From: Propionibacteriaceae bacterium
GTDB taxonomy: Bacteria > Actinomycetota > Actinomycetes > Propionibacteriales > Propionibacteriaceae
NCBI GenBank assembly: GCA_031256725.1
Contig: JAIRQE010000018.1
Span: forward strand, 81,561 to 113,560
Reading direction: 5' to 3'
Length of the DNA: 32,000 bases
Shown here: positions 2,917-30,396 of the stretch, piece by piece
Position numbering within the stretch: the first letter of the stretch is position 1
How the letters are laid out: every line of letters starts with the position of its first letter
Translations under genes and position numbers: made by a program
Notes under the pieces: model-generated
What the model was told of the DNA's origin: nothing
Database searches by the model: none
Seen by the model: the letters and a program-made list of their open reading frames with translations, nothing else

Positions 2917-3150
2917 ATGCGTACTACTGTTCGACTTGATGAGGATGTTCTTGCTGCTGTATCGATGTTGCAACGTGAGCGTCATCTGAGCCTGTCTGAG
3001 GCAGTCAATTCACTTGCACGAGCAGGTCAGCAACGCTCCAGTGCTCCACAACGCCCTTTTGTACAGCGGACCACCAAGCTTGGAATCACTGTCGATATAA
3101 GTAATACTGCTGAAGCGCTTGAGTATCTTGATGGGGTGGATCATCAGTGA
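2917..3150 (+). CDS. vapB: type II antitoxin, VapB-like (ribbon-helix-helix type N-terminus)
   Basis: 77 aa. The N-terminus MRTTVRLDEDVLAAVSMLQRERHLSLSEAVNSLARAG is typical of actinobacterial VapB antitoxins. The stop overlaps the downstream PIN gene start (GTGA). Confidence 0.7.
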   Translation: MRTTVRLDEDVLAAVSMLQRERHLSLSEAVNSLARAGQQRSSAPQRPFVQRTTKLGITVDISNTAEALEYLDGVDHQ

Positions 3151-3566
3151 TCGTTGATGCAAATGTCTTACTCTATAGCGTTGATGAATTATCACCATTC
3201 CACATCGAAGCTAGAGACTGGATGGAGGTAGCACTCAATGGTCCAACTCGTGTTGGATTACCGTGGGCATCTTTACTAGCTTTTCAGCGCATCAGTACAC
3301 ATCCTCGTGTCCCCAACCCGTTGACTCCACGGGAAGCCTGGACGTTCATTGAAGACTGGCTAGATGCTGAACAGGTGTGGATTCCAGTTCCTGGGTTGCG
3401 GCATTCTGAGATTATGCGAGAGTTGATCCTCGGCCAGGATATACGTGGAAACTTGGTTGCTGATGCCCATCTTGCTGCCCTAGCCATCGAACTTGGAGTG
3501 GGTGTTTGTTCTTTCGATTCAGACTTTGCTCGGTTCTCGAAACTCATGTGGGTGAGACCAGCTTAG
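3147..3566 (+). CDS. vapC: type II toxin, VapC PIN-domain ribonuclease
   Basis: 139 aa with a GTG start. MIVDANVLLY carries the first PIN acidic residue. Later acidic positions lie in NLVADAHLAALA and SFDSDFARF. Size and the 4-nt overlap with the antitoxin fit vapBC architecture. Confidence 0.8.
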   Translation: MIVDANVLLYSVDELSPFHIEARDWMEVALNGPTRVGLPWASLLAFQRISTHPRVPNPLTPREAWTFIEDWLDAEQVWIPVPGLRHSEIMRELILGQDIRGNLVADAHLAALAIELGVGVCSFDSDFARFSKLMWVRPA

Positions 3567-4808: not shown

Positions 4809-6284
4809 TTAGAAAGCAAAGGCTCTTCTTTCGGCATTATCCCAGTCGGATTGGGTGAGTCCTAGTACACCAGGGGTGTAGGTGTCGACTTGGCAGGAGG
4901 CTCGACTGACGTGGCGTAGGGCCATGAGGTCTCCTTGAAGTACACCGGTGGCTCTGGCTTGTACAAGGAGGCTGCCCAGGGCTGTACCTTCTGCAGGGCC
5001 GGCGATGACTTCTAGGCCGGTGGCTTCTGTTGTGAGTTGGTTGAGGAGACGGTTTCGGCATCCTCCACCAACGATATGGATGACTTCAACCTCGGTTTTA
5101 GCGAGGTTTTGGGCCTGGCGAATGACTCGACGATAGCCGAGGGCCAGGGAGTCGATGATGCAACGGGTGTACTCGACCGGAGTCTGGGGGATGGGTTGGC
5201 CTGTTTCCTGGGCCATGTCAGCAAGTCGGCTTGGCATATCTCCGGGGGGCATCAGTCTGGGGTCTTCCATATCGACTACGGTCACCAATGCGGGAAGATG
5301 GGCAGCGGCCTCAATGAGGGTTTGGAGGTCGACGTCAAGCCCCTCGGCTTCCCAATGTCGACGGGATTCCGTGAGTACCCATAGGCCCATGACGTTGCGG
5401 TGGTAAGTGAGAGTCGAATCTATTCCTAACTCGTTGGTGAAGTCTGCCTGGCGGGATTCTTCACTGAGGATGGGATGATCAAGCTCCAGACCAACCAGGG
5501 ACCATGTACCTGAGGAGATGTAGGCAAAGTTTCGCGTGGTTGTAGGGATTGAGGCGATTGCAGAAGCCGTGTCATGGGAACCGACAGCGATAACGGAGGT
5601 ATCGCAGTCAAGGATTTCTCGGTACAAGGATCCCACTACGGTTCCAGGCTCCACGAGTGGGGGGAGTACCCGTTCGCAATCAATGCCATAGCGTTGGTTC
5701 ATGTGGGCAAGAGTGGTCGCAGACCATTGCCTGGCCCCAACGTCAAGCAAACCTGAGGTCGAAGCAATCGTTATCTCGGCATTCTTTGCCCCGCACAGCC
5801 AATAGGTGAACAGGTCGGGGAGGAATAGACAGGTGTCCACCTCGGGCCATCTGGGATCCCCAGCACTACTCGCGTACTGAAAAACTGTGTTGAAATCCAT
5901 GACTTGCAAACCAGCTTGACCATAGAGTTTCTCGGGCCCGAAGTCGGCGAAGAAGGCTGCGGGGACACCTTGAGTTCTTGCATCCCTGTAATGGTGCGGC
6001 GGTTCGCTCAGGGTACCAGTTGCGTCGAGGCGGCCATAGTCTACACCCCAGGTGTCCACGGCGACACTGCGTAGGGGGCCAGATTCACCAGCAGCACGTA
6101 TCCCTGTAATGATGTGGTTCCTGATGGCCTCAGCATCCCAGTGAAGATGGCCATCATTCTCGAAGGATGGTGTTGGGAATCGATGGACTTCTGTGAGGGT
6201 GAAACGGCCATCATTGAGACGGCCAAGGATGACTCGCCCAGAGCTTGCTCCAAGATCGGCGGCGGCGAAAAGATGATCAATCAT
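4809..6284 (-). CDS. rhaB: rhamnulokinase (FGGY carbohydrate kinase family)
   Basis: The protein is colinear with E. coli RhaB as I recall it: DLGASSGRV, DTWGVDY, YRDARTQG, GSHDTASA, SSGTWSL, NVMGLW, IVGGGCRNRLLNQL, VIAGPAEGTALG. I place the start at ATG 6284, with AAGGAAG 7 nt upstream. The 43 codons further upstream in the ORF track are non-conserved and cover a palindromic operator. Confidence 0.85.
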   Translation of the reverse strand: MIDHLFAAADLGASSGRVILGRLNDGRFTLTEVHRFPTPSFENDGHLHWDAEAIRNHIITGIRAAGESGPLRSVAVDTWGVDYGRLDATGTLSEPPHHYRDARTQGVPAAFFADFGPEKLYGQAGLQVMDFNTVFQYASSAGDPRWPEVDTCLFLPDLFTYWLCGAKNAEITIASTSGLLDVGARQWSATTLAHMNQRYGIDCERVLPPLVEPGTVVGSLYREILDCDTSVIAVGSHDTASAIASIPTTTRNFAYISSGTWSLVGLELDHPILSEESRQADFTNELGIDSTLTYHRNVMGLWVLTESRRHWEAEGLDVDLQTLIEAAAHLPALVTVVDMEDPRLMPPGDMPSRLADMAQETGQPIPQTPVEYTRCIIDSLALGYRRVIRQAQNLAKTEVEVIHIVGGGCRNRLLNQLTTEATGLEVIAGPAEGTALGSLLVQARATGVLQGDLMALRHVSRASCQVDTYTPGVLGLTQSDWDNAERRAFAF

Positions 6285-6390
6285 GGTGGAACTTCCTTGT
6301 TGTCGCACTAGTCGGAGCCTATCATCCATGGGATGAATCTGGGGTCCCAGAGGGCCTTTTTTCCTTGACTCATGTCTAGGAACATCATAG

Positions 6391-6408
6391 AATTGAAACG
6401 ATTCAATT
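6391..6408. promoter_or_regulatory. LacI-family-type operator candidate (18-bp palindrome with central CG)
   Basis: AATTGAAAC|GATTCAATT has 8 of 9 symmetric pairs and a central CG, as in LacI/PurR/CcpA-type operators. It lies about 100 nt from both divergent starts (rhaB 6284, operon 6509). Confidence 0.4.
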
Positions 6409-6508
6409 TTCAAGATTAGGAACGCGATGGTCGCCCTTTGGGATCTTCGGTACCAAACCCAGATCGACGCCGAAAGAAACGGCAGTACCCAGGCCCCGTG
6501 GACGTAGT

Positions 6509-7681
6509 ATGTCGGTTATGACTCCCATTGTTAACACCCATGTTCATGTGCCGCCGAATTTCTCTGCCTTCACCACTGCGCGTCAGGTTGTCGAGGCTGC
6601 ACAGGCTGAAGGAGTCTCAATATTAGGGCTCTCCAATTTCTTTGATCAACAGGTCTATTCACAGATGGGCCAGATGATCACCGAGGCCGGAATCCTTCCC
6701 CTGTTTGGATTAGAGTTCATCACCGTCGTACCCGATCTAGAAGCCCAGGGAATTAGGATCAATGACCCGGCAAACCCGGGAAGGATGTACCTCACAGGCA
6801 AGGGGATCGACCCCTGCCGTACTCCGACGACCGGGGCTGCCCAGATTGCGGCAGAAATCCGTCGCGGCAATGATGACAGAGCCGAGAAGATGGTTGCCCG
6901 TGTGGCAGAACACTTCTTCAACACAGGATTCGACACAGGTCTGGATGCGGAAACAATCATCGCCCAGGTCGCCACACGAAGCGAGGTACCCACCACCTGG
7001 GTTTCCCTCCAGGAACGCCATATCGCCCAAGCCTTCCAAGAGGCAGTCTTTGGATTCACCGGCGAAAAGAGAACTCATGTTCTCACTCAAGCCTACGGAT
7101 GCCCTCCCCATGAACGTGAGGACCCAGTCGCCGTCCAAGCGGAGATTCGCTCGCGGCTGTTGAAGTCTGGTACCCCTGGATTCGTCCCCGAAGCTGGTCT
7201 CAGTTTCGAGGATGCCTACACCTATATCCTCGATATGGGTGGTATTCCCTGCTACCCAATCCTTGCCGACGGATCTGATCCCATCTGTCCCTTTGAGGCC
7301 TCGCCCTCCAAGTTGGTCGACCAAATCCTTGACCGTGGGATCTACGCAGCTGAACTGATTCCCATCCGCAACCACTCAGCTCTTGTTGATGAGTACGTCC
7401 ATGTCCTCAGATCAGCAGGACTCATCGTCATGGCGGGTACGGAGCACAACACATTAGACCGAATCCCCATTGATCCATCCTGCGTAGATGGCCCCATGAG
7501 TATCACGGCTCGCCAAGGGTTCTTTGAAGGTACCTGTGTGGTTGCTGCCCATGCCGACTTGATCTCAAGGAACCAGCCTGGCTATGTGGATTCGTCAGGC
7601 GCACGTGTCGGCGAGGTATCTACCCTTGCGGGGCACGGTAAAACAATGGTGCAAGTACTGTCCTATCCAGGCCGTACCTGA
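6509..7681 (+). CDS. PHP/amidohydrolase-like metal-dependent protein, function unknown
   Basis: 390 aa. The N-terminal NTHVHVPPNFSAF (HxH) plus later GLEF, AGTEHN and VAAHADL resemble the His/Asp/Glu metal ligand series of the PHP superfamily. This is the first gene of the operon divergent from rhaB. ATG 6518 is an alternative start. Confidence 0.45.
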   Translation: MSVMTPIVNTHVHVPPNFSAFTTARQVVEAAQAEGVSILGLSNFFDQQVYSQMGQMITEAGILPLFGLEFITVVPDLEAQGIRINDPANPGRMYLTGKGIDPCRTPTTGAAQIAAEIRRGNDDRAEKMVARVAEHFFNTGFDTGLDAETIIAQVATRSEVPTTWVSLQERHIAQAFQEAVFGFTGEKRTHVLTQAYGCPPHEREDPVAVQAEIRSRLLKSGTPGFVPEAGLSFEDAYTYILDMGGIPCYPILADGSDPICPFEASPSKLVDQILDRGIYAAELIPIRNHSALVDEYVHVLRSAGLIVMAGTEHNTLDRIPIDPSCVDGPMSITARQGFFEGTCVVAAHADLISRNQPGYVDSSGARVGEVSTLAGHGKTMVQVLSYPGRT

Positions 7682-7724
7682 AAGAATGGGTGACGAGTTA
7701 TGAGGAAAGAAAGAAGCTCCAGCA

Positions 7725-8972
7725 ATGCCTGTACGTCCTAAAAAGGTGGATGATGAAAACCGTCGCATCACGGAGGCTATTCACATCGCAGCGCCACTAT
7801 TACGAGGGCTGCTCGGGACTAACTCCAGTCTCGCAGTGGTGACCTCCGATTCTTCAGCATTGGTACGTACCGAGACCCACAGGGATAAGCCGATCATGTC
7901 TTTGGGGAGTCATGCATGCGTGGTGGAACCTCAGTACGCTTCCTTGGTTGACCAAGTCACTTCTGCTGTTGCTCAGTACAAGAAGACCTGGAACCGTGAT
8001 CCCAGGATCATTGTTCTTCCAGGCAAGGTGGTCTTTGCGGCGGGTCCCGATTATCGAAGCGCACGCAAATCCCTGGATCACTTCATTGATGCTCTGCAAA
8101 GCGGATCTGCTGACCCCCACACAGATGAGGAGGCTGAACCTCCAAGGGGGCGGATGCATTCGCGGGTTGTCATGGTGACTGGTGCTGCTCAAGGATTCGG
8201 TTTGGGGATAGCCCAAGGTCTCGTCGATGAGGGGGCCCACGTCGTACTTGCTGATCTCAACCTTGAACTAGCAACCAAGGAAGCTGAGTCCTTGCAGACC
8301 AAATTTGGCCCAGGGCGAGCGATGGCTGTTCGTATCAACGTCGCCGACGAGGATTCCCAGAAGCAGGCTTTAGAACAGGTACTCTCCGTCTATGGTGGCC
8401 TGGATCTGTTCGTCTCTAATGCCGGTATTGCCCGCGCAGGATCGATCACCGAACAGAGGATGGAGGACTTCGACCTCGTCACCTCTATCAATTACAGGGG
8501 ATACTTTCTGGGAGTACGTACGGTCGCCCCAATTATGATCGCCCAACATGAGGTACGCCCCGATCTTCTCTTCGACATCATCGAGATCAACTCCAAATCC
8601 GGTTTGGAGGGCTCGAAACGCAACTTTGCCTATGCCGGAAGTAAGTTCGGAGGGATCGGGTTAACCCAGTCTTTTGCCCTAGAACTGATTGATGTGGGTA
8701 TCAAGGTCAATTCGATTTGCCCAGGGAACTATCTGGATGGACCCCTGTGGTCGGACCCCGAGAACGGTCTCTTCGTTCAGTACCTGCGCGCAGGAAAGGT
8801 ACCAGGAGCCTCAACTGTGGCCGATGTTCGAGCTTCCTACGAGGCCAAGGTACCAATACATCGCGGATGCCTACCCGCTGACGTGGTCAGGGCTGTGCTC
8901 TATCTTGTTGAGCAACAATATGAGACGGGTCAGGCATTACCGGTTACTGGCGGTCAAGTCATGGTGAACTGA
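7725..8972 (+). CDS. short-chain dehydrogenase, SrlD / RhaW-type, with an N-terminal extension of about 150 aa
   Basis: The C-terminal 260 aa are colinear with sorbitol-6-phosphate dehydrogenase as recalled: VTGAAQGFGLG, INSKSG, YAGSKFGGIGLTQS (YxxxK), VPIHRGC, TGGQVM. The N-terminal part (IIVLPGKVVFAAGPDYRSARKSLDHFIDAL) resembles the inter-domain region of bifunctional aldolase/SDR proteins (YuxG/RhaEW), but no class II aldolase domain is present. Confidence 0.7.
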   Translation: MPVRPKKVDDENRRITEAIHIAAPLLRGLLGTNSSLAVVTSDSSALVRTETHRDKPIMSLGSHACVVEPQYASLVDQVTSAVAQYKKTWNRDPRIIVLPGKVVFAAGPDYRSARKSLDHFIDALQSGSADPHTDEEAEPPRGRMHSRVVMVTGAAQGFGLGIAQGLVDEGAHVVLADLNLELATKEAESLQTKFGPGRAMAVRINVADEDSQKQALEQVLSVYGGLDLFVSNAGIARAGSITEQRMEDFDLVTSINYRGYFLGVRTVAPIMIAQHEVRPDLLFDIIEINSKSGLEGSKRNFAYAGSKFGGIGLTQSFALELIDVGIKVNSICPGNYLDGPLWSDPENGLFVQYLRAGKVPGASTVADVRASYEAKVPIHRGCLPADVVRAVLYLVEQQYETGQALPVTGGQVMVN

Positions 8973-8997
8973 TTGAATGGTTGAATAAGGATTAAGA

Positions 8998-10623
8998 ATG
9001 AACTTACAAGCAATGGAACCCACAGTGACACAATATGCAATCCAGATCACGGCCAAGGACCACGTTGAGATTAACCCTGAGATGCCGATTCCTGACGTGG
9101 GGCCTACGCAGATTCTGTTAAAGATTGAGGCCTGTGGGATCTGCTTCTCAGATACGAAGCTGATGCATGCCTTCGAGAATCATCCACGCAAGACACCCAT
9201 TACTGGTGGGTTGACGGAGGCTGAACTTGCCGAGATTCTCACCTATCGCCCAGGTGGGGAACCAGTGGTACCAGGTCATGAACCAGTGGCGAGGATCGCC
9301 CGCGTGGGGACCGAGGTTACTCGGTTTGAGGTGGGTCAGCGTGTCCTAGTTCAAACCGACTATCGACATATTCCAACTGTTGCTTCTAACGCAGCCTTTG
9401 GGTATGACTTCGATGGTGCCTTAGCCGAATATGCTCTCGTAGACGAGAGGATGGTGATTGATCCTCGAACTGATGAATCCCTGCTGATTCCCGTGACAGA
9501 AATCCCCTCCTCCTCGGCTGTGGCCCTGATTGAACCATGGGCCTGTGTTGAGACTGCTTACGCATGGCCAGAGCGCCAAGGGCCTCTCGTGGGTGGATCA
9601 GTCCTGGTTGTCACTGATGGTTGCTGCGTGCTTGAAGGGTTGGATGCCCTGATCGCTGGTTATGGGTCTCGTACAGATGTGGTCGACCTAGCCGAGATCA
9701 AGGAAGGATCGATCTTCGACGACATCATCTACGTGGGTGCGGATGCGGATGTTCTGGAGAAACTGGGGCCACACCTTGCCAACAGGGGGATCATGAACAT
9801 CATCACCTGTGGTCGTGAATTTGAGCGTCCGGTGAACATTGATGTCGGCAGGATCCATTACGACCTGATTCGCTATGTGGGTACCACTGGTTGCAATCCG
9901 TATGACGGGTACTCCTGGATCCCCGAAACCTGCGAACTTCGTCACAATGAATCCATTGCCATCATCGGGGCTGCTGGTCCCATGGGATTGATGCATACCG
10001 TTCGGGCAGCAACCATGGGGATCGAGGGTATCACCATTGATGCAGTCGATGTCAGTGATGAGCGCCTCAAGCGGCTGGAGGAGGTACTAGCCCCCATTGC
10101 GGCCAAGGCCGGGGTAGCATCACGTGTACTCAACTCCACAGCAACCCCCTTAGTGGAGAACTCCTATTCCTATGTTGCACTCATGGTGCCTGCGACCCCT
10201 CTTATCACCCAAGCGGTGTCCTTAGCCAGTGAGGGCGCGATCATTAACGCCTTTGCTGGCTTCGCAATTGGTACCACTGCCGCGATGGATATGAATGCCA
10301 TGATAGCCAAGAGGCTGTATGCCGTTGGTACCTCTGGGTCCCGGGTCCAAGATATGGTGACTATGGTGAGGCGACTGGAGGCTGGTCAGGTCGATACAAA
10401 CATCTCCCTGGATGCCATCACGGGTATTGCTGGTGTACTAGATGCAATCGAATCGGTCAATAATCGTACCTCGCAGGGCAAGATCATGGTCTATCCACAG
10501 TTGAAGGATCTAGGGTTATTAAGGTTAGTCGAGATTCCTGACAGATTCCCTGAGGTGGGAGCCCTCATGGATGGGGGATCATGGACCAAGCAGGCAGAAG
10601 CCAAACTATTGTCAATCGCGTAG
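8998..10623 (+). CDS. zinc-type alcohol dehydrogenase / MDR superfamily protein, unusually long (541 aa)
   Basis: TAAGGA lies upstream of ATG 8998. The GroES-like part carries CGICFSD and PGHEPVARI. A degenerate nucleotide-binding-like segment (VLVVTDGCCVLEGLDALIAGYG) is followed by a canonical one (IAIIGAAGPMGLMHTVRAA...DVSDERL). Confidence 0.7.
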   Translation: MNLQAMEPTVTQYAIQITAKDHVEINPEMPIPDVGPTQILLKIEACGICFSDTKLMHAFENHPRKTPITGGLTEAELAEILTYRPGGEPVVPGHEPVARIARVGTEVTRFEVGQRVLVQTDYRHIPTVASNAAFGYDFDGALAEYALVDERMVIDPRTDESLLIPVTEIPSSSAVALIEPWACVETAYAWPERQGPLVGGSVLVVTDGCCVLEGLDALIAGYGSRTDVVDLAEIKEGSIFDDIIYVGADADVLEKLGPHLANRGIMNIITCGREFERPVNIDVGRIHYDLIRYVGTTGCNPYDGYSWIPETCELRHNESIAIIGAAGPMGLMHTVRAATMGIEGITIDAVDVSDERLKRLEEVLAPIAAKAGVASRVLNSTATPLVENSYSYVALMVPATPLITQAVSLASEGAIINAFAGFAIGTTAAMDMNAMIAKRLYAVGTSGSRVQDMVTMVRRLEAGQVDTNISLDAITGIAGVLDAIESVNNRTSQGKIMVYPQLKDLGLLRLVEIPDRFPEVGALMDGGSWTKQAEAKLLSIA

Positions 10624-10638
10624 GCAAGGAGAAAATCG

Positions 10639-12273
10639 ATGGCTGACGTTATAGTGATGCCCCAACTGGGGAACACTGTTGAATCCTGTCTGGTGACCTC
10701 ATGGAGGGTTGCCGTGGGTGACACCGTGACCCCGAATACGATCATCGCTGAGATTGAGACAGATAAGTCCTCAATGGAGGTACCAGCCGGTGTGACAGGG
10801 ACAGTCCTGGCCCTGTTGGCCAATCAGGGTGACGAGGTACCAGTCAAAGCTCCCTTCTTCATTGTCGGAACCCAGGGTGAATCCATTGAGGACTTGGTTG
10901 CACCACTCCAGGTTGATGAACCTGCGGCACCCCAAGAGTCTCCTGCCCCTGTTGAAGAGGTACCAGCTGTTCTCCATGAGGATGGAACTGCTGTAGCCAA
11001 TGAGGATATGGATACCCAGGACCCAGATGTCGGTGGTACAGCTTCCCCTCGCGCTCGTCGTGCAGCACAAGAGGCGGGCCTTGAGATTTCAGGGATTCCA
11101 GGTACAGGCCCCGAGGGTAGAATCCTCATTAGTGATGTGAAGGCAGTGATCGAAGCCCGCGCCGCCGCATCTGTACCTCAGGAGCCCCCAGTTGATGTGG
11201 TCGAAGCAGAGGAACCCACTCCACGATGGTCAACTGGTAAGTTCCCTGAGGAGGAAATTCCCAGAACCCGTGCCGCCCAGGAGCATCCAGGAAATGCACG
11301 CACAGGAACAGGGATCGGTGGCAGAATTACTAGAGATGACCTCACCGAGGTTGAGGTCCAGCCCCTCCATGCGATCGCCGAGGATGAGATAGAGCCACAA
11401 CCCGAGCCCACTGCTGTACCAGAAGCCATTGAGCCTGAACCTGAAATAGAAACCGCATCCCCTGAAGTAGGAACCGAAGCAGAACTTGAAGGAACTGAAG
11501 CAGAGCCTGAGGAATCCGAGGATTCTTCAGCAGTTGCAGAGGGGAATGATTTCCCTGGACCTGTGACCGAGATCCCCCTGAAAGGAATTCGTAAGCTCGT
11601 CGCAGAACGCATGTTGATCTCCATGTCCAACCATGCCCAACTCTCCTTCGACACCTCAGCACCAGCAGCAGCCCTTCTCTCCTTACGAGCAAGGCTGAAA
11701 GCAGGGGATGAATCCCTTGGGATGAATCAGATCACTATCGGTGATCTCGTAGCCTATGCCGCTGTGAAGACCGCAATGAGGTTCCCCTCTATCAACGCGA
11801 CCCTCCAAGACCAGGTTCTCCGCAGTTATGAGACGGTACACCTCGGGCTAGCTGTGGATACTCCACGAGGGCTCTTGGTACCCACAATTCGTTGGGCGTC
11901 AACCATGAGTCTTCGAGAGTTCTCAGCCGAGGTAAAGCCCTTGGTTGCCCAAGCCCAAGCAGGGTCCATCAACCCGGATCTGCTGGCTGGTGCGACCTTC
12001 ACAGTGACCAATTTAGGGGCCTTCGGAATCGAATCCTTCACCCCTATTTTGAACTCTCCGCAGATAGCAATCCTCGGAGTCAATGCCATCACTCCAAGGC
12101 CAGTGATCAACCCGGATGGTAGTTATTCTGTCGAACAAAGAATCGGGTTCTCGCTCACTGTGGATCATGCTGTGGTGGATGGAGCTGATGCAGCGCGCTT
12201 TCTGAAGGCTCTCGTGGCCTTCATCACCGATATCGACGTGGCGATTCTCGCAGAAGGGACACATAATGGCTGA
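10639..12273 (+). CDS. dihydrolipoamide acyltransferase (E2) of a 2-oxoacid/acetoin-type dehydrogenase complex
   Basis: AAGGAG lies upstream of the ATG. It has one lipoyl domain (EIETDKSSMEVPA), a subunit-binding domain (ASPRARRAAQEAGLEISGIPGTGPEGRILISDV), a long acidic Pro/Glu linker and a catalytic domain with DHAVVDGADAARF. Confidence 0.85.
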   Translation: MADVIVMPQLGNTVESCLVTSWRVAVGDTVTPNTIIAEIETDKSSMEVPAGVTGTVLALLANQGDEVPVKAPFFIVGTQGESIEDLVAPLQVDEPAAPQESPAPVEEVPAVLHEDGTAVANEDMDTQDPDVGGTASPRARRAAQEAGLEISGIPGTGPEGRILISDVKAVIEARAAASVPQEPPVDVVEAEEPTPRWSTGKFPEEEIPRTRAAQEHPGNARTGTGIGGRITRDDLTEVEVQPLHAIAEDEIEPQPEPTAVPEAIEPEPEIETASPEVGTEAELEGTEAEPEESEDSSAVAEGNDFPGPVTEIPLKGIRKLVAERMLISMSNHAQLSFDTSAPAAALLSLRARLKAGDESLGMNQITIGDLVAYAAVKTAMRFPSINATLQDQVLRSYETVHLGLAVDTPRGLLVPTIRWASTMSLREFSAEVKPLVAQAQAGSINPDLLAGATFTVTNLGAFGIESFTPILNSPQIAILGVNAITPRPVINPDGSYSVEQRIGFSLTVDHAVVDGADAARFLKALVAFITDIDVAILAEGTHNG

Positions 12274-13651
12274 ATACGATGTCATCATTCTAGGCGGTGG
12301 GCCAGGCGGGTACATTGCTGCTGAAAGACTCGGTCATGGGTGCAAGTCTGTACTCCTGATTGAGAAGGACACCCTGGGGGGTACATGTCTCAATGTTGGA
12401 TGTATCCCAACTAAGGCACTCCTCAACTCCGTTAAACTCTATGAACATGCTCGTGACTCCAGTCAGTTCGGGGTCGTCACCGAGTCAGCATCCTATGACT
12501 GGGCCACCGTCCAGGAGTGGAAAAACAAGACGGTAACCACCCTTGTTGGTGGGGTTGCCCAAATGATGAAGAGACTCAAAGTCACGGTGGTTAATGGCGA
12601 GGGTCACATGACCAGTCCCACAACAGTCGAAGTTAATGGCGAGGAACACAGTGCTCTCGATGTCATCATTGCCACAGGTTCGCTACCAGCAATGCCACCG
12701 ATTCCCGGATCTGTGGACAATCCTTCAGTAGTGGATTCGACCAGATTATTGTCCATTGACCAGGTACCACCACGGCTGACTATCATCGGTGGGGGAGTCA
12801 TCGGTGTGGAGTTTGCCTCCATCTTCTCTCGTTTAGGCTCACGGGTTACCATCGTGGAAATGATGGATGAGATCCTTCCCTTCATGGAATCCGATCTCGC
12901 TGCACGTCTGAGAACCCAGATGCCAGCAGTTGATTTCCGTTTGGGTGCCAAGGTTGAAGCCATTGAGGGTACGACCGTGGTCTATTCCCACGATGAGGTC
13001 ACCGATAGGATTGAGGGTGATCTTATCCTCATGGCTGTTGGTCGTCGCCCACTCGTGAATGGATGGGGTGCAGACACTATCGGCTTGGATTATTCACCCG
13101 CTGGCATCACTGTGGACGACCAGATGCGTACCAACCTTCCTCATGTTTGGGCTGTCGGTGATGTGACAGGACGATCCCTTCTTGCGCATGCGGCCTATCG
13201 AATGGGCGAGATCGCTGCGGCACATATCCTGGATGGAACCGCCAAAGATCGTGGTCAAGTCATGAGATGGGACACCATCCCGTGGGCTTTGTACTCCTCA
13301 CCTGAGGCTGCTGGAGTGGGGCTCACTGAAGAGGAATGTACCAAGCGTGGGATCGAGGTGAATGCAACCACTGTGCCTCTAGTCCTTTCAGGGCGTTTTA
13401 TCGCTGAACATGGCTTGAGCCGTGCAGGGATGGTCAAGGTTGTTGCCGAAACCGAAACCAGGGTAATCCGTGGCATCCAGGTCATGGGGCCCTATGCACC
13501 AGAAATGATCTGGGGTGCTGCTGGGGTACTCGAAATGGAATTCACGATCGAGGATGTACGCCAGCTTGTCTTCCCTCATCCCACAGTTAGCGAAGGAATA
13601 CGGGAGGCAGTGTGGGCCTTCCCAGATAAGAAGAGAAACGAACAACGATGA
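12266..13651 (+). CDS. lpdA: dihydrolipoyl dehydrogenase (E3)
   Basis: It shows the FAD motif [11 protein letters not shown], the redox disulfide [16 protein letters not shown], the NAD motif [12 protein letters not shown] and the C-terminal HPTVSEG. The start overlaps the E2 stop by 8 nt. Confidence 0.9.
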
Positions 13652-16104
13652 CTAAGTCACTAATAGTTAACCCCCTTGAGGTACGTGCGAAGGGTTCCAT
13701 TCGCCCACCCGAGATCCCTGTCAACGCCTATCAGCTCGACCTTCCCACAGAGGTGGGCCGCTATGGTACAGACACCCTGATTCATGTTCTTCACGACATG
13801 ATCGTGATCCGAGAGTTCGAATCCATGTTGAACTCAATCAAGACCACAGGAGCATGGCAGGGGATCTCCTATGACCACGCTGGCCCAGCGCACCTGTCCA
13901 TGGGCCAAGAGGCTGCCGCTGTCGGTCAGGCACTCGAATTAGGTCCAGATGACTTCATCTTTGGTTCCCACCGTTCCCATGGTGAAATCCTAGCCAAGTG
14001 TTTCTCTGCTGCGCGCACAATGCCTGAGACTGATGTACGAACGATCATGGAGGGCTTCCTCAGTGGGGAGACCCTCAAATACGCCGAACATCTTCCCAAT
14101 AGTTCCGAGGCTGAGGTCCAAGCCAACTTCATTCTCTTTGGTACCCTCGCGGAGATCTTCGCTCGCAAGGCTGGGTTCAATAGGGGTATGGGTGGGTCCA
14201 TGCATGCTTTCTTTGCTCCCTTCGGGTCCATGCCCAACAACGCCATTGTGGGCGGTTCTGGGCCCATCGCCCAAGGCGCAGCACTATTCAAAAGGATCAA
14301 TTCACGCCCAGGGATCGTCGTCGCGAACATCGGTGATGCCTCCATGGGATGCGGGCCTGTTTGGGAGTCTATGGTCTTCTCCGCCATGGATCAGTTCCGT
14401 CAACTGTGGCCAGAATCAGCGGGCGGGAATCCGCCGATCCTGTTCAACTTCTTCAATAACTTCTATGGGATGGGTGGCCAAACCGATGGGGAAACCATGG
14501 GGTACGACATCCTGGCTCGCGTGGGTGCTGGAGTAAATCCTCAAGCCATGCATGCTGAACGTGTGGACGGGTACAACCCCCTCGCTGTTGCCAATGCAGT
14601 ACGCCGCAAGAAGGAGATCCTTCTCGCTGGACAGGGGCCTGTACTCCTAGACACGATCACCTATCGCTATTCAGGCCACTCTCCCTCCGATGCTTCAAGC
14701 TATCGAGTCAAGGAAGAGGTGGATCTGTGGGAGCAGATGGATTCCATTGAAGCCTACGCTACGACACTGGTCAATGGGGGGATTCTGTCCCCATCTCAGG
14801 TGGGTGAGCTTCGAGCTCGTATCGTTGACAAGCTCGCTCAGGTGTTGACTCTTGCTAGTGATGACCAGAAGTGCCCCAGGGTGGACGTACAGTTCATCGA
14901 GTCGGTGATGTATTCCAATGGGAAAGCCGAGGTTATGGGTACTGGCACCCCTGAACTCAGCCAGCCCTTGGCCGAGAATTCGCGAGTCAAAGCGATTTCG
15001 GGCAAGATCCGTAAAAACGTTGATGAGCAGGGCAAGCCTGTGTCCAAGGTGAAGATGTACCAGTACCGCGACGGTCTGTTCGAGGCCATGGCACACCGCT
15101 TCGCTATCGATCCAACCATGGCAGCCTGGGGTGAGGAGAACCGTGACTGGGGTGGAGCCTTTGCGGTCTACCGTGGATTGACCGAGTTGCTTCCCTATAA
15201 TCGCCTCTTCAATTCCCCAATCTCCGAGGCAGCCATTGTGGGTGCTGGTGTGGGTTATGCCTTGTGTGGTGGGCGCGCTGTCGTTGAGTTGATGTACTGC
15301 GATTTCCTGGGTCGTGCCGGTGACGAGATCCTCAACCAGGTTTCCAAGTGGCAGTCCATGTCTGCTGGGATCCTGACCATGCCTTTGGTGGTACGTATCT
15401 CTGTGGGCAATAAGTACGGGGCTCAGCACTCCCAGGATTGGTCGGCCATCCTCGCCCATGTGCCCGGTCTGAAGGTCTACTATCCTGCGACCCCCACTGA
15501 TGCCAAGGGGATGCTGAATCTGGCCTTGGCTGGTACAGACCCGGTCATCTTCCTGGAGTCCCAAAAGCTCTATGACGTTGGTGAAGAGTTTGAAGCTAAT
15601 GGTGTTCCAGTGGGGTACTACGAAACCCCCGAAGGGGAACCTGCGATCCGTCGTGAAGGTACCGACCTTACGATTGCTACCCTTGGGCCTACTGTGTACA
15701 CCGCGATGGATGCAGCCAAGGTTCTCCAGGAAAAGTATAACCTCTCAGTCGAGGTCATTGATCTTCGGTTTGCTGTGCCGTTGAATTACGATCCACTCTT
15801 GGCCTCAGTCAAGAAGACAGGGCGCTTGGTGCTCGCTTCCGATGCTGTTGAGAGAGGCTCCTTCATGCAGACCGTCGCTGCGACCGTTTCCCAGGTCAGC
15901 TTCGATGACTTGGATGCTCCAGTGGTGGTTCTGGGTTCCAGAAACCACATCACCCCTGCTCCAGAATTAGAGGAACTATTCTTCCCTCAGGTCGACACTA
16001 TCCTTGATGCCATCCATACAAGGATTCTTCCGCTCGAGGGGCATGTGCCCACCACAGACCAGTCGAATACTGAGAGTCTGAGAAGGGCCAAGTACGGCGT
16101 CTAA
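13648..16104 (+). CDS. fused E1 alpha-beta, thiamine-diphosphate-dependent dehydrogenase component (818 aa)
   Basis: ATG 13648 overlaps the E3 stop (ATGA). The N-terminal half is alpha-type ([15 protein letters not shown], ThDP motif [13 protein letters not shown]...[11 protein letters not shown]). The half from about aa 480 is beta-type ([51 protein letters not shown]). Confidence 0.85.
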
Positions 16105-16141
16105 GAAGATATGGTCTACGTGGATACGGGGACTAAAGTAT

Positions 16142-16364
16142 TTAGGCTCCGAACCCAACTGGCTGGGCATGTTCTTGACCGAATTCCAGGTATCCGATGG
16201 TTTCTGGGGGGGATGAGCATATGTCGGCCTGAGGCGTCGTCTAGGGTAAAAAGGGTGTCGGCCTTGCGGGCTTGCTCATATGCTTTGACCACGTCAGCAA
16301 TGGTGAGGTCAACAGTGAGTGTGACCTCGCGGGCAACATTGCGGATTCCGATCTTGATTTCTAC
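16142..16364 (-). pseudogene. DUF3107-family pseudogene (start codon lost, +1 frameshift)
   Basis: The minus strand reads GTA-EIKIGIRNVAREVTLTVDLTIADVVKAYEQARKADTLFTLDDASGRHMLIPP, then goes out of frame. The run is CCCCCCC here versus CCCCCC in the intact copy. The ATG of the intact copy (cat at 20568-20570) is tac here (16362-16364). Confidence 0.75.
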
Positions 16365-16399
16365 GGGGGTCCTTTTTAGATGATCAGCTGAAATCAGCC
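16142..16399. repeat. direct repeat, copy A (decayed) of the DUF3107 gene plus the last approximately 16 nt of the FHA gene
   Basis: Aligned by eye to 20349-20609, it shows about 15 differences over about 258 nt, including one extra G in a G-run and a 2-nt indel. Confidence 0.85.
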
Positions 16400-16433: not shown

Positions 16434-17501
16434 TCAGCGGTACTTAAAGAAAGTGAATAGTTGGCTTTCTCGAATCAGTGAACAACCAATGACCGTTCCC
16501 ATGATAGCTCCTGATACGGCGGATACTAGGACTCGGACCCCTGTAAACATCACGCAAATGGTATCACTTAAGCTTCCCCAGCTTGTGACTATTACAATCG
16601 GAATACAAAAGATAGTAGCGATCGCCACCCAAGATATAGATTCGAATAGTAATTGCAGATGAAGAAAGAAGTGAGACACTCCAGCATGAAGGTTGCTGGC
16701 ATGTTCTAAGCGGCGTGTCCATACCGTAGTAACGGCCAATATTAGGCTAATGACGAGACTAATCAGAGGGGTCCATCGGGTTAACCGGTGATCATATCGG
16801 CCCACATCGTACACTGATGCATGTTGTGGGTTTAATTGAAAAATCTGTGTTTGTCTAGATGCATAATGAGGTATTAATGATAAATAGAGAAGCGACTTCG
16901 TTTGCTCAATTGTTGGCCACATCGTCACCCAACACTCATCAAATATCTCATCGGATGTGACCACCTGAAGTGCAGCAAAACCTAAACCTGATCGTCGCCC
17001 ATCTTCTGGATATCTATACATGCCGCTGATTGGAACCTCTCCCCGAGTTGTGTGAATTCTACCTTCGACAGCTAACCCGTATCGGTCAAAGACTTGATCG
17101 GAAACAACCAAACCAGGATCAAAGCCATGGTTGGCATTGACAACAAGAAAGAAACCAGGGGTAACTGAATACAACGGAATCGTTGTGCGTGGAAGAAGCA
17201 CATCAGTTAACCCACTGTGATCGTCCCGCAACGAACCCGATGCCAAGACACCTTCGACTGTACTCAGGGCATCACATGCATTCCCTGAGATCGCTTGCGG
17301 AGATTGGAGTATCCAGGTGGCACCTCCCTCGTTGAGATACGTATTCGCCTCATTGACAAACCCCCGCACGGTTGATTCTTCCACCCAAGCTAAAGTTCCA
17401 GTCAGAGCAACAAAGATAATAACCAACCTGATGAGGCGCGTTGTGCTAGATGTAATGTTTCGAAAGGCTTCGCGACCTGCTTCCTGCCAGTGTAGATTCA
17501 C
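16434..17501 (-). CDS. ABC transporter permease, FtsX/MacB-type
   Basis: 355 aa with a GTG start overlapping the ATPase stop (GTGA). The topology is one N-terminal TM helix (LVIIFVALTGTLAWV), an extracytoplasmic domain of about 200 aa, then three C-terminal TM helices. That is the MacB/FtsX layout. Confidence 0.65.
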   Translation of the reverse strand: MNLHWQEAGREAFRNITSSTTRLIRLVIIFVALTGTLAWVEESTVRGFVNEANTYLNEGGATWILQSPQAISGNACDALSTVEGVLASGSLRDDHSGLTDVLLPRTTIPLYSVTPGFFLVVNANHGFDPGLVVSDQVFDRYGLAVEGRIHTTRGEVPISGMYRYPEDGRRSGLGFAALQVVTSDEIFDECWVTMWPTIEQTKSLLYLSLIPHYASRQTQIFQLNPQHASVYDVGRYDHRLTRWTPLISLVISLILAVTTVWTRRLEHASNLHAGVSHFFLHLQLLFESISWVAIATIFCIPIVIVTSWGSLSDTICVMFTGVRVLVSAVSGAIMGTVIGCSLIRESQLFTFFKYR

Positions 17502-18175
17502 GATTCCTCCGTCAATAATTTCTGCTTCGCTAGCCGAGAACTCATCATAATGACGGGATTTGCTTCCCCAAGATCAAGCACATCGGTACATACATCTCGA
17601 GTCTCTCTGTCATGAGTAGCAACAACTACAATTGTTCCACTTCTTGCCAATCCTTCCAATGCACTATTAATCTCTTGGGCTGTTCGACGGTCTAATTGAG
17701 CTGTTGGTTCATCAAGTAATAGCAAGTCAGGATCGGAAGCCAAACCTCGCACAAGCATCAGCCGTTGAGCCTCTCCACCCGATAAAGAGCCAAACGGATT
17801 ATCTGCGACATGGCGAAGGCCAAATTGAGCCATCAAATGGAGGCTCGCTTCTTCTGCTTCGCGGCGTAGATATCCCTGGGCGATGAATGCAATCGCTACA
17901 TGATCGAGTGCTGTTCGCCGGGGCACTCCATACGGATTTTGGAAGACCCACCGTGTAGTGGAGATCTGATGTTGACAGAGAGTCCCGGTGATTGGCTCCA
18001 GCCAACCTGCAAGCATGGATAGGAGTGTCGATTTGCCCGAACCAGAAGGACCCACCAGGGCATAAACCCGGTTGGGTATTAGGGTGAATGATAGATCCTC
18101 AAAAAGTAGCCGATCTGGAGCAAAGCCAAATGCAATTCCAGCCGCTTCCACATAGAGTTCAGGCGTCTTTATCAT
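17498..18175 (-). CDS. ABC transporter ATP-binding protein (MacB/LolD-like)
   Basis: It has Walker A GPSGSGKST, the signature LSGGEAQRL, Walker B LLLLDEPT and the H-loop ATHD. Confidence 0.85.
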   Translation of the reverse strand: MIKTPELYVEAAGIAFGFAPDRLLFEDLSFTLIPNRVYALVGPSGSGKSTLLSMLAGWLEPITGTLCQHQISTTRWVFQNPYGVPRRTALDHVAIAFIAQGYLRREAEEASLHLMAQFGLRHVADNPFGSLSGGEAQRLMLVRGLASDPDLLLLDEPTAQLDRRTAQEINSALEGLARSGTIVVVATHDRETRDVCTDVLDLGEANPVIMMSSRLAKQKLLTEES

Positions 18176-18254
18176 AAGAAAGCCATACGTTTCCCATGGA
18201 CCACGATCCTAGGAAGGCAGAATATCCAATAGAAAAAAGATATTTTATAACTCA

Positions 18255-19316
18255 TTATTCGGAGCACTTCAGATCATGTGGGGGGTTGATGGCAACCTCA
18301 TGCGGTTGTTTTCCAGCGAAGGTGACGAAGGACTGACCCAACTCGGAAGATACGATAGTTACTGGCATTGGCTTGCCATCCCCAATAACGCATCCCAATG
18401 AAGCTCCTTGGGGTCGAATGGAAGCCGGTGGAATCACAGATACGTTGAGAGGTTCAACAAGTGTGTAGATTACTTGAATAGAATCAGTCGATCCCTGAGT
18501 GATACTTGCATCGACTATCGGTGAACTCGCCAAATCAAGCAAGGCTTGAGAATCAGTAATTGAACCATCGGAATTGACAGACAGAGTGACATCATCAATA
18601 GTGATATTTCTAGCTCCTTGGACGAGACGGGTTGAGCTGATGGCGATTCTAGCCGACACTATGTGTGGCTCGAATATCGCAAGAACTTCCCCTTGCGTAA
18701 TTGAAGCACCCATGCCAACGGGGCAACTTGCCAGGCGCAAAGAATCGGAAGGCAACCAACTCACATTATTCATATATATAAATCCGTCGGATAGGTTATT
18801 ATTTGGAGTTCCCGCTTCTTTGGCCATCTGTTTGAAGGCTCTTATTAGGTTCCGTGTTGCAAGTTCACTAACATCACCCTTAAACCATCCCAACCGCACT
18901 AACTCGTGAGACATAGCCTGAACATCAATTCCAGAATCACCCATACCAATGTCCCGCCACATTGGTATGGAGGTAGCCATCGAAATCGACGGGACGCCAT
19001 TAATAGCGAATAAGGACTGCCCAGAATTCACTGTATCGCCAACTGCACAACTGGAGTTGGTAATAATCCCAACTCCGGTCGACAAGAGCGCTCGCTCGGG
19101 ACCAAAGTCCAGCGAAAGACCAACCAATTGCCTATCATCAAACAATCTCTGAGTTACCGGGGCTGTCCCTGCGTTCACAGTTCCTGACAAAACATTCGGT
19201 GTTTCATTCCATAGTATGGCCCAAGCACCAGTGGCACCAACTATGACCAAGCATAAACCCAACATCAAACCCAGTATCACCCGATTTATCCTCCCCTTGT
19301 GTGAAGACGATGCCAT
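18255..19316 (-). CDS. membrane-anchored periplasmic-adaptor-like protein (HlyD/MacA type) with an inserted peptidoglycan-binding-like segment
   Basis: It has an N-terminal TM helix (VILGLMLGLCLVIVGATGAWAIL) and a lipoyl-like hairpin motif (VGDTVNSGQSLFAING...; later ITQGEVLAIFE). GIDVQAMSHELVRLGWFKGDVSELATRNLIRAFKQM resembles a PG_binding_1 repeat. It sits directly upstream of the ABC pair. Confidence 0.5.
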   Translation of the reverse strand: MASSSHKGRINRVILGLMLGLCLVIVGATGAWAILWNETPNVLSGTVNAGTAPVTQRLFDDRQLVGLSLDFGPERALLSTGVGIITNSSCAVGDTVNSGQSLFAINGVPSISMATSIPMWRDIGMGDSGIDVQAMSHELVRLGWFKGDVSELATRNLIRAFKQMAKEAGTPNNNLSDGFIYMNNVSWLPSDSLRLASCPVGMGASITQGEVLAIFEPHIVSARIAISSTRLVQGARNITIDDVTLSVNSDGSITDSQALLDLASSPIVDASITQGSTDSIQVIYTLVEPLNVSVIPPASIRPQGASLGCVIGDGKPMPVTIVSSELGQSFVTFAGKQPHEVAINPPHDLKCSE

Positions 19317-19366
19317 GTAAATCTCCTCTTAGGCTCCTAAGTCATTCTGTAACATGAAAATAACGA

Positions 19367-20002
19367 CTACCGTGTATTTGTTGGGTCGCTGTTGCATGCC
19401 CAGAACTTGTCAGCGTCCTCCGAAGGGTTTAAGGAACTGTACTCCTGAAAAAAAGCCCCTGTCTCAAATTCTTGAGCATAATCATCTGCAGAATATCCAT
19501 CAGGGCGAATTCCTACTCTAACAAGACATTCAGCCATGATGACATAGGGATCAATGTTGTTAGGATTAATTCTTACACCGTTGTAAAGGCCAGCAAGGGT
19601 GGTCCAGTCGATGTTTTTCTCGCAGACTTCAGTTAGTTTTTGGGCCCGTATCCCAGTTTCTTCAACTGATTCTCCAGTTAAAGAAGGCAAAAAGGTGTCC
19701 AGACTACCGTCAGTTCCAATTTTGTAGACTGTCAACCCAGAAGCCTGCAAACAATCACGAAGTGTGTCTTTAGCTTGGAGTATCTCTTCATCAGTTATGT
19801 TTCCATCTGCAAGTATCGCCTTCGCAAGATCAGATAATACTTCGGCTGACGCTTTTTCAAACTCTGCCACCCAGGGACCAGTCGTTTGAGCCTCACCATT
19901 GTTCATACTTGAAGGCTTTTGGGGGACTTCCGAGCAGGCGCACACAAAGACAAGCGCCATAAACACCATGACTACTTTCGCCAGACTATTGATCGAACCC
20001 AT
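19367..20002 (-). CDS. putative lipoprotein, function unknown
   Basis: It has a signal peptide with a lipobox-like VFVCAC|S, followed by an acidic domain with several Cys residues. It is the first gene of the islet cassette. Confidence 0.55.
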   Translation of the reverse strand: MGSINSLAKVVMVFMALVFVCACSEVPQKPSSMNNGEAQTTGPWVAEFEKASAEVLSDLAKAILADGNITDEEILQAKDTLRDCLQASGLTVYKIGTDGSLDTFLPSLTGESVEETGIRAQKLTEVCEKNIDWTTLAGLYNGVRINPNNIDPYVIMAECLVRVGIRPDGYSADDYAQEFETGAFFQEYSSLNPSEDADKFWACNSDPTNTR

Positions 20003-20077: not shown

Positions 20078-20348
20078 ATAGGTTGAAATCTTGTTCTTAT
20101 CTATACAGATAATACACACGAACTAGCAACCCTACCGAATTTCTGGCTTGCCTCCCAGATGCTTTCGCACCACATAGCATCCTTGGTGATGCGAGCCAGG
20201 GCTAAGCTCACCCAGACTGGATCATCAACTTCGCCGAAGGTCCTCGTGGGGAAGAAAGGGCACACGATTCTGGCCCCTTGTGACGGCTTTGGGGTTAGTT
20301 CTTCGTATTAATGCTCGAAGCCATAGTGCGACGGTCTTGTACGGTATC

Positions 20349-20570
20349 TTACGCTCCGAACCCTACTGGTCGGGCATGTTCTTGACCGAATTCCAGGTAT
20401 CCGATGGTTTCTGGGGGGATGACCATATGACGGCCTGAGGCGTCATCTAGGGTAAAAAGGGTGTCGGCCTTGCGGGCTTGCTCATATGCTTTGACCACGT
20501 CAGCAATGGTGAGGTCAACATTGAGTGTGACCTCGCGGGCAACATTGCGGATTCCGATCTTGATTTCCAT
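20349..20570 (-). CDS. DUF3107-family small protein
   Basis: 73 aa: MEIKIGIRNVAREVTLNV...YLEFGQEHARPVGFGA. This matches my recollection of the actinobacterial DUF3107 pattern (MEVKIG...VGFG). AAAGGA lies upstream of the ATG. Confidence 0.7.
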   Translation of the reverse strand: MEIKIGIRNVAREVTLNVDLTIADVVKAYEQARKADTLFTLDDASGRHMVIPPETIGYLEFGQEHARPVGFGA

Positions 20571-20609
20571 GGGGGTCCTTTTTCTAGATGGGGTCAGCTG
20601 AGATCAGCG
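20349..20609. repeat. direct repeat, copy B (intact)
   Basis: This is the partner of 16142-16399. It covers the intact DUF3107 gene, the 23-nt spacer and the last codons plus stop of the FHA gene. Confidence 0.85.
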
Positions 20610-21361: not shown

Positions 21362-21363
21362 CT

Positions 21364-22644: not shown

Positions 22645-22653
22645 AGATCAACC

Positions 22654-29846: not shown

Positions 29847-29850
29847 ATGT

Positions 29851-30384
29851 TTATCCCAGGTCTAGTGGTGATGTGGAAACTGAAGGTTTGGGTTTGGGTA
29901 CAGCCATGGGAACACGCCCTGGTGAAAACTTCTCAACCAGGAAGCGACCATGGACAACCAAGGCCTCGGCATCCTTGGCTAAGACAGCGTCATAGATCTT
30001 GTCTACTGTTTCCCCAAGAAGATCCAATTGGTCGATGAGAACCAACAAGGAGGAGCGGCCTGCATCCACTGGTCGAGAATCAGCCCAGTCCCGTGGCAGG
30101 CGAACATAGCTTCCCACAGTTTGGGGAAGATAGCTAGTTGCAGTCGCGATCAAGGAGTACTGATCCACTGAGGTGAGACCTGTGTTATCCATTCTCGGAA
30201 GGGTTTCTCGAAGCCTCTTAGTGATCCTGTTGACTCGAGAAATGACCGCGCTCGACAGCGCCGCAGAGACCACTTTCTCGTCCATCATATCGAGGGCAGT
30301 GGCAATCTCTTCGGGGGTCGGTGCTGAGGGAGTCTCAGGAGCGGTCTGCTCGTGATCCTCTCGAAACCAATCAAATAGTCCCAC
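29851..30384 (-). CDS. hypothetical small cytosolic protein (177 aa)
   Basis: GTG start at 30384 with GGGAG upstream. It sits tightly between the TelA-like and AAA+ genes, with gaps of 12 and 4 nt. I recognise no motif. Confidence 0.5.
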
Positions 30385-30396
30385 GAAATACTCCCG

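Follow-up and report, generated by a model that had tools for sequence, protein, structure and literature searches.

The DNA analyzed here is a 32,000-nt stretch of the genome of a Propionibacteriaceae bacterium (hereafter, the window; positions 81,561–113,560 of contig JAIRQE010000018.1, assembly GCA_031256725.1), and we focus on a sugar kinase gene and the divergent six-gene operon at window positions 4809–16104. The source genome is 2.1 Mb in size and 97.7% complete, and the nearest relatives of the locus are in metagenome-assembled genomes of Propionibacteriaceae. All seven genes, i.e., the kinase gene and six co-oriented open reading frames (ORFs), lie where a preliminary description of this DNA had placed them, and all are intact. 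The gaps between successive genes on the plus strand are 43, 25, 15, −8, and −4 nt, so these six genes, referred to below as the module, are tightly spaced or overlapping. The kinase probably starts at the ATG at position 6284, as read from the sequence; the longest ORF extends to 6413. A near-perfect palindrome is likely to be the operator of the divergent promoters. Its 14-bp core has no second match in the genome at ≤ 1 mismatch (expected numbers, 0.02 exact and 0.8 one-mismatch), and the core was found upstream of rhaI/rhaB or of the gene for the PHP-fold protein in six relatives. The arrangement recurs in Actinomycetota, Chloroflexota, Verrucomicrobiota, and Kiritimatiellaceae and, by published annotation, in Caldicellulosiruptor, and this recurrence across phyla indicates that it is not due to chance. 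The features are listed in Table 1. In the text, G000 is the source genome, other G numbers are Propionibacteriaceae genomes, L numbers are loci, and C numbers are contigs.

Table 1. Features of the kinase–module locus (window positions).
Feature	Position	Strand	Basis or remark
RhaB-like FGGY ketose 1-kinase (rhamnulo/fuculokinase type)	4809..6284	-	491 aa; TIGR02627 best family
Near-perfect palindrome, 18 bp	6391..6408	.	likely operator
PHP-fold metalloprotein, altered metal site	6509..7681	+	AF2 fold; candidate sugar-phosphate epimerase/isomerase
SrlD-like alditol-phosphate dehydrogenase (SDR) with N-terminal linker domain of ~140 aa	7725..8972	+	PRK12384
Divergent SorE-family MDR with ~120-aa insertion	8998..10623	+	541 aa; putative ketose-1-phosphate reductase
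E2 dihydrolipoamide acyltransferase (lipoyl, E3-binding, catalytic core)	10639..12273	+	Pfam
E3 dihydrolipoyl dehydrogenase	12266..13651	+	TIGR01350, 451 bits (cut-off 409 exceeded)
Fused alpha-beta thiamine diphosphate (ThDP) E1, distinct sugar-linked clade	13648..16104	+	tree, motifs

The preliminary description had called rhaB unmistakable, which is too strong: TIGR02627 is the best family for the kinase, but the score is 399 bits against a cut-off of 528. None of the RhaB-like kinases of the relatives reaches this cut-off, those adjacent to rhaI included, and the same kinase type adjoins true FucI in relatives. The protein is 57–70% identical to its congener counterparts. For the second gene, a family scan gave a faint PHP-type match, and the AlphaFold2 (AF2) model (pLDDT 96) predicts a PHP barrel with a helical insertion, in agreement with the earlier label of PHP-like. 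The nearest folds are those of RNase AM and Cv1693 (Foldseek E 2e-11; Z 24.0, rmsd 3.5, 277 aligned). The protein shares its fold with these phosphoesterases but does not keep their full His/Asp trinuclear ligand set. H11, H13, E69, and D/E312 are kept and R170 and R287 are invariant, whereas the His position of motif 3 is Tyr94 in all 35 aligned sequences; Tyr249 and Asn314, assigned from where they fall in the motifs, presumably occupy His-ligand positions of canonical PHPs. Because only one metal site is kept, the protein does not belong to the trinuclear PHP phosphoesterases. No relative was found among plasmids, and in two proteins, P0244 (886 aa) and P0279 (842 aa), the PHP domain is fused to a partner without an assignment.

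The SDR had been described as of the SrlD/RhaW type, and the SrlD half of this label fits better: PRK12384 was the best family at 229 bits, although below its cut-off of 307, the RhaEW match was weaker (165 bits), and the top match of an orthologue in the Protein Data Bank is SrlD (5o3z). The SDR catalytic motifs are intact. Elsewhere, this slot is occupied by SrlD-like or SorD-like proteins (the latter in Opitutales, 52% identical to Serratia SorD), the two being subfamilies of glucitol-6-phosphate dehydrogenase. The long-form profile of the MDR matches Serratia SorE (E 1.6e-14; identity, 21–27%), and the 420-aa proteins found in the MDR slot elsewhere are 49–52% identical to SorE; we take the MDR to be a remote member of the SorE family and presumably a ketose-1-phosphate reductase. 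In protein P0098 (909 aa), an MDR is fused to E2 domains. A variant in Opitutales (L106:2686-16490, L093, and L098) combines a PfkB kinase, a mannitol-dehydrogenase-family gene, a very divergent MDR-like protein of 604 aa, and a SorD-type SDR.

The last three genes encode a complete ThDP complex in the order E2, E3, fused E1, as had been described. The lipoyl-lysine and catalytic His motifs of the E2 are intact, and the source genome has lipoate-ligase-family and transketolase genes. In a FastTree phylogeny of 48 rows, in which six reference sequences were labelled from annotation or gene context, the E1 falls into a clade of its own (SH-like support 100; stem, 0.79) apart from the Aco, four Pdh, and two Bkd references. 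It thus groups with neither PdhAB nor BkdAB. The earlier assignment to the acetoin type is borne out by the alpha half, in which the His-Arg motif of AcoA takes the place of the Tyr-Arg of pyruvate dehydrogenase (PDH) and branched-chain 2-oxo acid dehydrogenase (BCKDH), but not by the tree, where the E1 is not nested among AcoAB. In the beta half, R499 and K589 are family-invariant and located in loops that, judging from the fold, could line the active site and bind phosphate. The E1s on rhizobial plasmids lie beside genes for a xylulokinase, a polyol dehydrogenase, a PfkB kinase, and a psicose-3-epimerase-like protein, and partner with AcoC-type lipoyl and hydrolase genes. The clade also adjoins transaldolase genes elsewhere; in seven loci (L074, L077, L085, L088, L097, L108, and L021), an E1, a transaldolase-family gene, and an E2, sometimes with an E3, occur without PHP, SDR, or MDR.

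The statement that the operon lacks a rhamnose isomerase and a RhaD/RhaE aldolase domain is correct and extends to the whole genome. No RhaA/RhaI isomerase was found in the source genome (PF06134, no match; TIGR02635, 38 bits against a cut-off of 531), nor was a true FucI or a RhaD/RhaE/FucA aldolase; the sole class II aldolase-family gene is AraD, which exceeds its family cut-off and sits within the ara operon. In four congeners (G380, G332, G446, and L001, same genus), rhaB is divergent from rhaI-PHP-[aldolase-linker-SDR]-MDR, and E2-E3-E1 follow wherever the contig extends that far. The congener aldolase domains keep all catalytic motifs (GGGN, Glu, HxH, and NHG). Compared with this operon, two pieces are missing from the window, rhaI and the class II aldolase domain, and no others, and the first ~140 aa of its SDR correspond to the linker domain of the aldolase–SDR fusion. 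Since the module coexists with rhaI and a RhaE-type aldolase in congeners, the six genes occur alongside the rhamnose genes rather than standing in place of an isomerase and an aldolase, as had been suggested. Genomes of the family usually contain either both RhaI and the RhaE-type aldolase or neither.

It is rather improbable that the locus is a non-working remnant of a rhamnose operon after the loss, possibly very recent, of rhaI and the aldolase. The genome is small (2.1 Mb, compared with 2.7–3.1 Mb in most congeners), the DeoR regulator of the module was not found in it, and what remains at the locus in the 1.6-Mb congener G415 (L128, G415:C13:10000-29999) is the SDR, the E2, and an E1 that has diverged further (63%), without RhaB, PHP, MDR, and E3. 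However, none of the seven ORFs in the window is disrupted, nor are their catalytic motifs, the C18 operon described below is intact, and G438, which belongs to another genus, has the same design. The window proteins are as near to those of congeners as the latter are to one another (the misaligned comparison of RhaB with G380 was excluded), and synonymous sites are saturated; this absence of excess protein divergence argues against long decay or relaxed selection. The SDR is not a broken pseudogene, because it has its own ribosome-binding site and starts at the same boundary as natural aldolase-less forms in other phyla. Frameshifts that break the E1 or SDR frames were seen in L013:17445-19899, L005, and L008 and may be sequencing errors.

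No transporter is present in the window, as had been noted for the operon, but a transporter, a mutarotase, and an isomerase are encoded elsewhere in the genome, at G000:C18:29323-36365 (L026:5321-12423). This operon (the C18 operon) comprises genes for a FucU-like mutarotase, a CUT2 ATP-binding cassette (ABC) importer, a LacI regulator, and a 548-aa FucI-fold isomerase. Its genes are 60–78% identical to genes that, in L013 and L014, lie immediately next to PHP in divergent orientation. The binding protein is 28–35% identical to its nearest structures; the binding-protein family of C18-type operons (51–55% identical to the L014 protein) also heads true fucI-kinase operons. The isomerase gave no match to the FucI N2 domain, but its C-terminal ANH motif does align; a solved close relative was found neither for it nor for the MDR. 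It belongs to an uncharacterized FucI-fold family that also adjoins FGGY kinases in Deinococcus and Sinorhizobium. A 14-bp LacI-type palindrome occurs in the C18 operon in two perfect copies; an operator common to the window and this operon was not found, as the palindromes differ. A further locus in the source genome, G000:C16:135500-148100 (L028), holds, as recognized by eye, genes for an LsrF-like protein, two FGGY kinases, a TRAP transporter, an HpcH-like aldolase, and a TIM-barrel isomerase.

Among 80 metagenome loci with an E1 of this clade, 26 had ≥ 4 kb on either side, and 20 of these contained sugar-catabolic neighbors. The full PHP, SDR, and MDR set was found in 12 of the 26, seven of which had no aldolase in the locus. 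Across phyla, the neighbors of the module include RhaA, RhaI, and true FucI. In a survey of 150 other genomes of the family, a fucose-type isomerase was present in 17 of the 21 E1-positive genomes (11 C18-type and 6 true FucI, never both), compared with 6 of the 129 E1-negative genomes; as the surveyed genomes are kin, this is a pattern and not a statistic. Two genomes that are 100% complete, G323 and G409, have the full module and an ABC-fucI-kinase-LacI operon whose kinase is RhaB-like, and a search of either whole genome gave no match to a class II aldolase. In G438 (99% complete), RhaB is divergent from a C18-type operon, the module is present, and the sole class II match is AraD-like. In G392, the fucI operon continues straight into the module. 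The occurrence of FucI, a kinase, and the module in genomes without an aldolase speaks most strongly for a route from fuculose-1-phosphate that needs no aldolase.

Based on these results, we propose, with a probability of about 0.55 as judged from sequence evidence, that the operon encodes the later steps of a 6-deoxyhexose pathway that dispenses with an aldolase, the likeliest sugar here being L-fucose. The substrate in this genome is more likely to be of the fucose type than rhamnose. The C18 operon would import the sugar and, by mutarotation and isomerization, supply L-fuculose, which the RhaB-like kinase would convert, by homology, to L-fuculose-1-phosphate. Speculatively, the PHP protein, proposed for this step because it is the sole unassigned conserved member, would invert C3 to give 6-deoxy-L-sorbose-1-phosphate or would correct this carbon once the tetrose has formed. 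The combination of SorE with SorD or SrlD is the known means of shifting the carbonyl of a ketose-1-phosphate from C2 to C5, and RhaB products have the C3 configuration opposite to that of L-sorbose-1-phosphate. By homology to this sorbose route, the MDR would reduce C2 and the SDR would oxidize C5, yielding 1-deoxy-D-fructose-6-phosphate or, without prior C3 inversion, 1-deoxy-D-tagatose-6-phosphate. Moving the carbonyl in this way on a 6-deoxy sugar would create a methyl-ketol end (CH3-CO-CHOH), whose ketol bond the E1 may cleave on ThDP; E2 would then transfer the acetyl group to coenzyme A (CoA), and E3 would reoxidize the lipoamide. The products would be acetyl-CoA, NADH, and D-erythrose-4-phosphate, or D-threose-4-phosphate if C3 were not inverted, in which case the same carbon would need correction afterwards. 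Given C3 inversion, all homologues would keep their textbook stereochemistry, according to our own reasoning from the specificities of RhaB, SorE, and SrlD. In congeners, rhaI and the RhaE-type aldolase would add an entry for rhamnose, a pair that the source genome lacks. Cleavage of a C5-oxidized deoxy-ketose phosphate to acetyl-CoA and a C4 fragment had been offered as a speculation in the preliminary description, and it is the best-supported mechanism here.

The same carbonyl shift and ThDP cleavage might serve another sugar that enters via the FucI-fold isomerase and RhaB, such as D-arabinose, L-galactose, or a 5-deoxy or branched pentose, although we regard this as unlikely. In the pentose case, D-xylulose-5-phosphate or its 1-deoxy form would yield glycolyl- or acetyl-CoA and glyceraldehyde-3-phosphate. 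By our own reasoning, the stereochemistry of RhaB, SorE, and SrlD would link L-xylulose-1-phosphate to D-xylulose-5-phosphate with no need for an epimerase; E1 homologues in Agrobacterium and Pleomorphomonas adjoin a xylulokinase and a polyol dehydrogenase, and another sugar would also account for the product stoichiometry of Caldicellulosiruptor described below. Against this stand the true FucI and kinase in the aldolase-free G323 and G409 and the linkage to RhaA, RhaI, and FucI repeated across phyla; moreover, ordinary pentulose or hexulose phosphates would make a dedicated E1 unnecessary.

It was also suggested earlier, as a more conservative route, that lactaldehyde is converted via lactate and pyruvate to acetyl-CoA, with the PHP protein replacing the aldolase. 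This route is not supported, because the E1 lacks Tyr-Arg and lies outside PDH and BCKDH in the tree and because the SDR and MDR are homologues of alditol-phosphate dehydrogenases. The PHP protein was rejected as a replacement aldolase, as it has no aldolase fold and most congeners and many relatives carry it together with an intact aldolase, and it is disfavored as the missing isomerase because all PHP-positive family genomes carry RhaI or a C18-type isomerase. In a broader form, the complex would remove lactaldehyde, or a C3 product derived from it, following ordinary aldolase cleavage, as was suggested without a test for Caldicellulosiruptor (PMC8579813). The intact RhaE-type aldolase fused to the SDR in many relatives, which is the RhaEW architecture, fits this reading, and a fructose-6-phosphate aldolase (FSA) or transaldolase near some modules could form 1-deoxyfructose-6-phosphate from hydroxyacetone and glyceraldehyde-3-phosphate (the reverse of the reaction in PMC13450708). 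However, four near-complete genomes keep the module without a RhaD/FucA aldolase, the SDR resembles SrlD, to which RhaW is only 22% identical (PMC3870299), the E1 is not a PDH, and neither transaldolase nor FSA was found in the source genome. We therefore consider this reading quite improbable.

The proposed route resembles several known systems in part. As in the L-sorbose pathway of Klebsiella, E. coli, and Serratia, a ketose-1-phosphate reductase and an alditol-6-phosphate dehydrogenase would move the carbonyl from C2 to C5; in contrast, the module has no phosphotransferase system, would receive its phosphate from an FGGY kinase, includes an MDR with a 120-aa insertion, and is coupled to a ThDP/lipoamide complex. 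The acetoin system (AcoA/AcoB/AcoC/AcoL) shares the His-Arg motif, shows the highest identity to the E1 among the references (33–37%), has an E2 and an E3, and carries out ketol cleavage to acetyl-CoA and an aldehyde, the reaction type proposed for the module. Unlike that system, the module E1 forms a separate clade with fused chains, insertions in the ThDP motif, and the invariant basic residues of the beta half, and the operon has a sugar-kinase context without butanediol dehydrogenase or AcoX. Like RhaEW, congeners fuse a class II aldolase to an SDR inside the rhaB-rhaI operon, but the SDR half is SrlD-like, and the aldolase half is absent in the window and in several other lineages. In anhydroglycolysis (YbiW/PflD followed by FSA), the proposed intermediate 1-deoxyfructose-6-phosphate is a known bacterial metabolite (PMC13450708); there, however, glycyl radical enzymes produce it, and an aldolase converts it to hydroxyacetone and glyceraldehyde-3-phosphate without oxidative cleavage. 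In Caldicellulosiruptor, Csac_0865-0876/Athe_0695-0706 contain, by annotation, the same set (hypothetical protein, SrlD, SorE, E2, E3, single-gene E1, and DeoR), but beside a rhamnose isomerase (RhaA) and aldolases (FucA and RhaD1) that the source genome lacks. That module was guessed to oxidize lactaldehyde, and its SrlD/SorE were filed under “sorbose?” (PMC8579813).

Several observations weigh against the proposed fucose route. When C. saccharolyticus grows on rhamnose, the cluster is induced and 1,2-propanediol, acetate, H2, and CO2 are formed at 1:1:1:1 (PMC4187192); the 1:1 propanediol represents aldolase-route flux and fits neither the lactaldehyde guess nor a major rhamnose flux via the proposed route. 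G431, G446, and G324 have the module and rhaI but no fucose-type isomerase. The C18 isomerase gave weak matches to the N1 and C domains of Pfam FucI (E 1e-5), under the cut-off, and C18-type isomerases are frequently paired with xylulokinase (XylB in L014 and G327), a pairing that would favor another sugar. As for co-regulation, the palindrome of the window is unlike the LacI site of the C18 operon and, as mentioned above, the DeoR gene was not found; nor was a transaldolase that could take up the tetrose phosphate. Finally, pRL80079-88 of Rhizobium are reported to be needed for homoserine use (PMC8416774), and the E1 among them (pRL80083, by counting from pRL80081 and pRL80079) belongs to this clade, with 52% identity. 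This phenotype, together with a probable fuconate dehydratase gene recognized by eye near one E1 (L025), would suit an E1 that is a dehydrogenase of a hydroxylated or phosphorylated 2-oxo acid rather than a ketol-cleaving enzyme. We consider that possibility very remote: the E1 has His-Arg and not Tyr-Arg, genes forming sugar acids are absent from the window and from congener operons, and the partner genes make ketose phosphates. The pRL8 locus itself (L009:8103-20649) resembles a sugar cluster, with FucU, a CUT2 ABC transporter, a psicose-epimerase-like gene, a PfkB kinase, and the E1, and a few kb from it there is a distinct homoserine dehydrogenase/kinase cluster.

The rest of the window contains other genes. 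A PIN-domain (VapC-like) gene at 3147–3566 is flanked by thrC and rhaB. Following the E1, a 90-aa ORF (16111–16383) has a second copy, 83% identical, 4 kb downstream (~20330–20583); it has a match in G380 and none in Pfam, and may be a repeat instead of a gene. Between the two copies, positions 16434–20002 (minus strand) have a lower GC content (46–49%) and contain an ABC ATPase gene and unassigned ORFs; this spot holds other genes in one congener contig. Genes for FHA/zinc-ribbon, vWA, PknG-type kinase, and TelA proteins stand in a row at 20594–31698, and congeners have them too.

The gene set is real and conserved and has been noted in the literature without a functional test. What is new here is the loss of rhaI and the aldolase relative to congeners, the complementary occurrence of FucI and the C18-type isomerase, the four whole genomes without a RhaD/FucA aldolase, and the altered metal site of the PHP protein. 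To our knowledge, fucose and rhamnose are degraded either through an aldolase and lactaldehyde (to 1,2-propanediol or propionate) or by a non-phosphorylating oxidative route. We give a little less than even odds to an undescribed way of degrading L-fucose (and rhamnose) by which a lipoamide complex like PDH splits 1-deoxy-D-fructose-6-phosphate oxidatively to acetyl-CoA and erythrose-4-phosphate, following a new PHP-fold ketose-phosphate epimerase and a sorbose-type carbonyl shift and without an aldolase or lactaldehyde; this route was absent from the literature searched (glycolyl-CoA, fucitol-1-phosphate, and deoxytagatose pathways), which was mostly outside subscription journals. If correct, this would be a further route that brings all six sugar carbons into central metabolism, by means of a lipoamide dehydrogenase complex whose substrate is a sugar phosphate, for which we found no description in the literature. 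The question open since the Caldicellulosiruptor transcriptome work would become testable with four purified enzymes and with the aldolase-free FucI genomes. The route would also account for aldolase-free fucose genes in oral, gut, and marine bacteria, i.e., the named members of the E1 clade (Actinomyces, Opitutales, and Kiritimatiellaceae), in which the E1 is currently annotated as 2-oxoisovalerate dehydrogenase.

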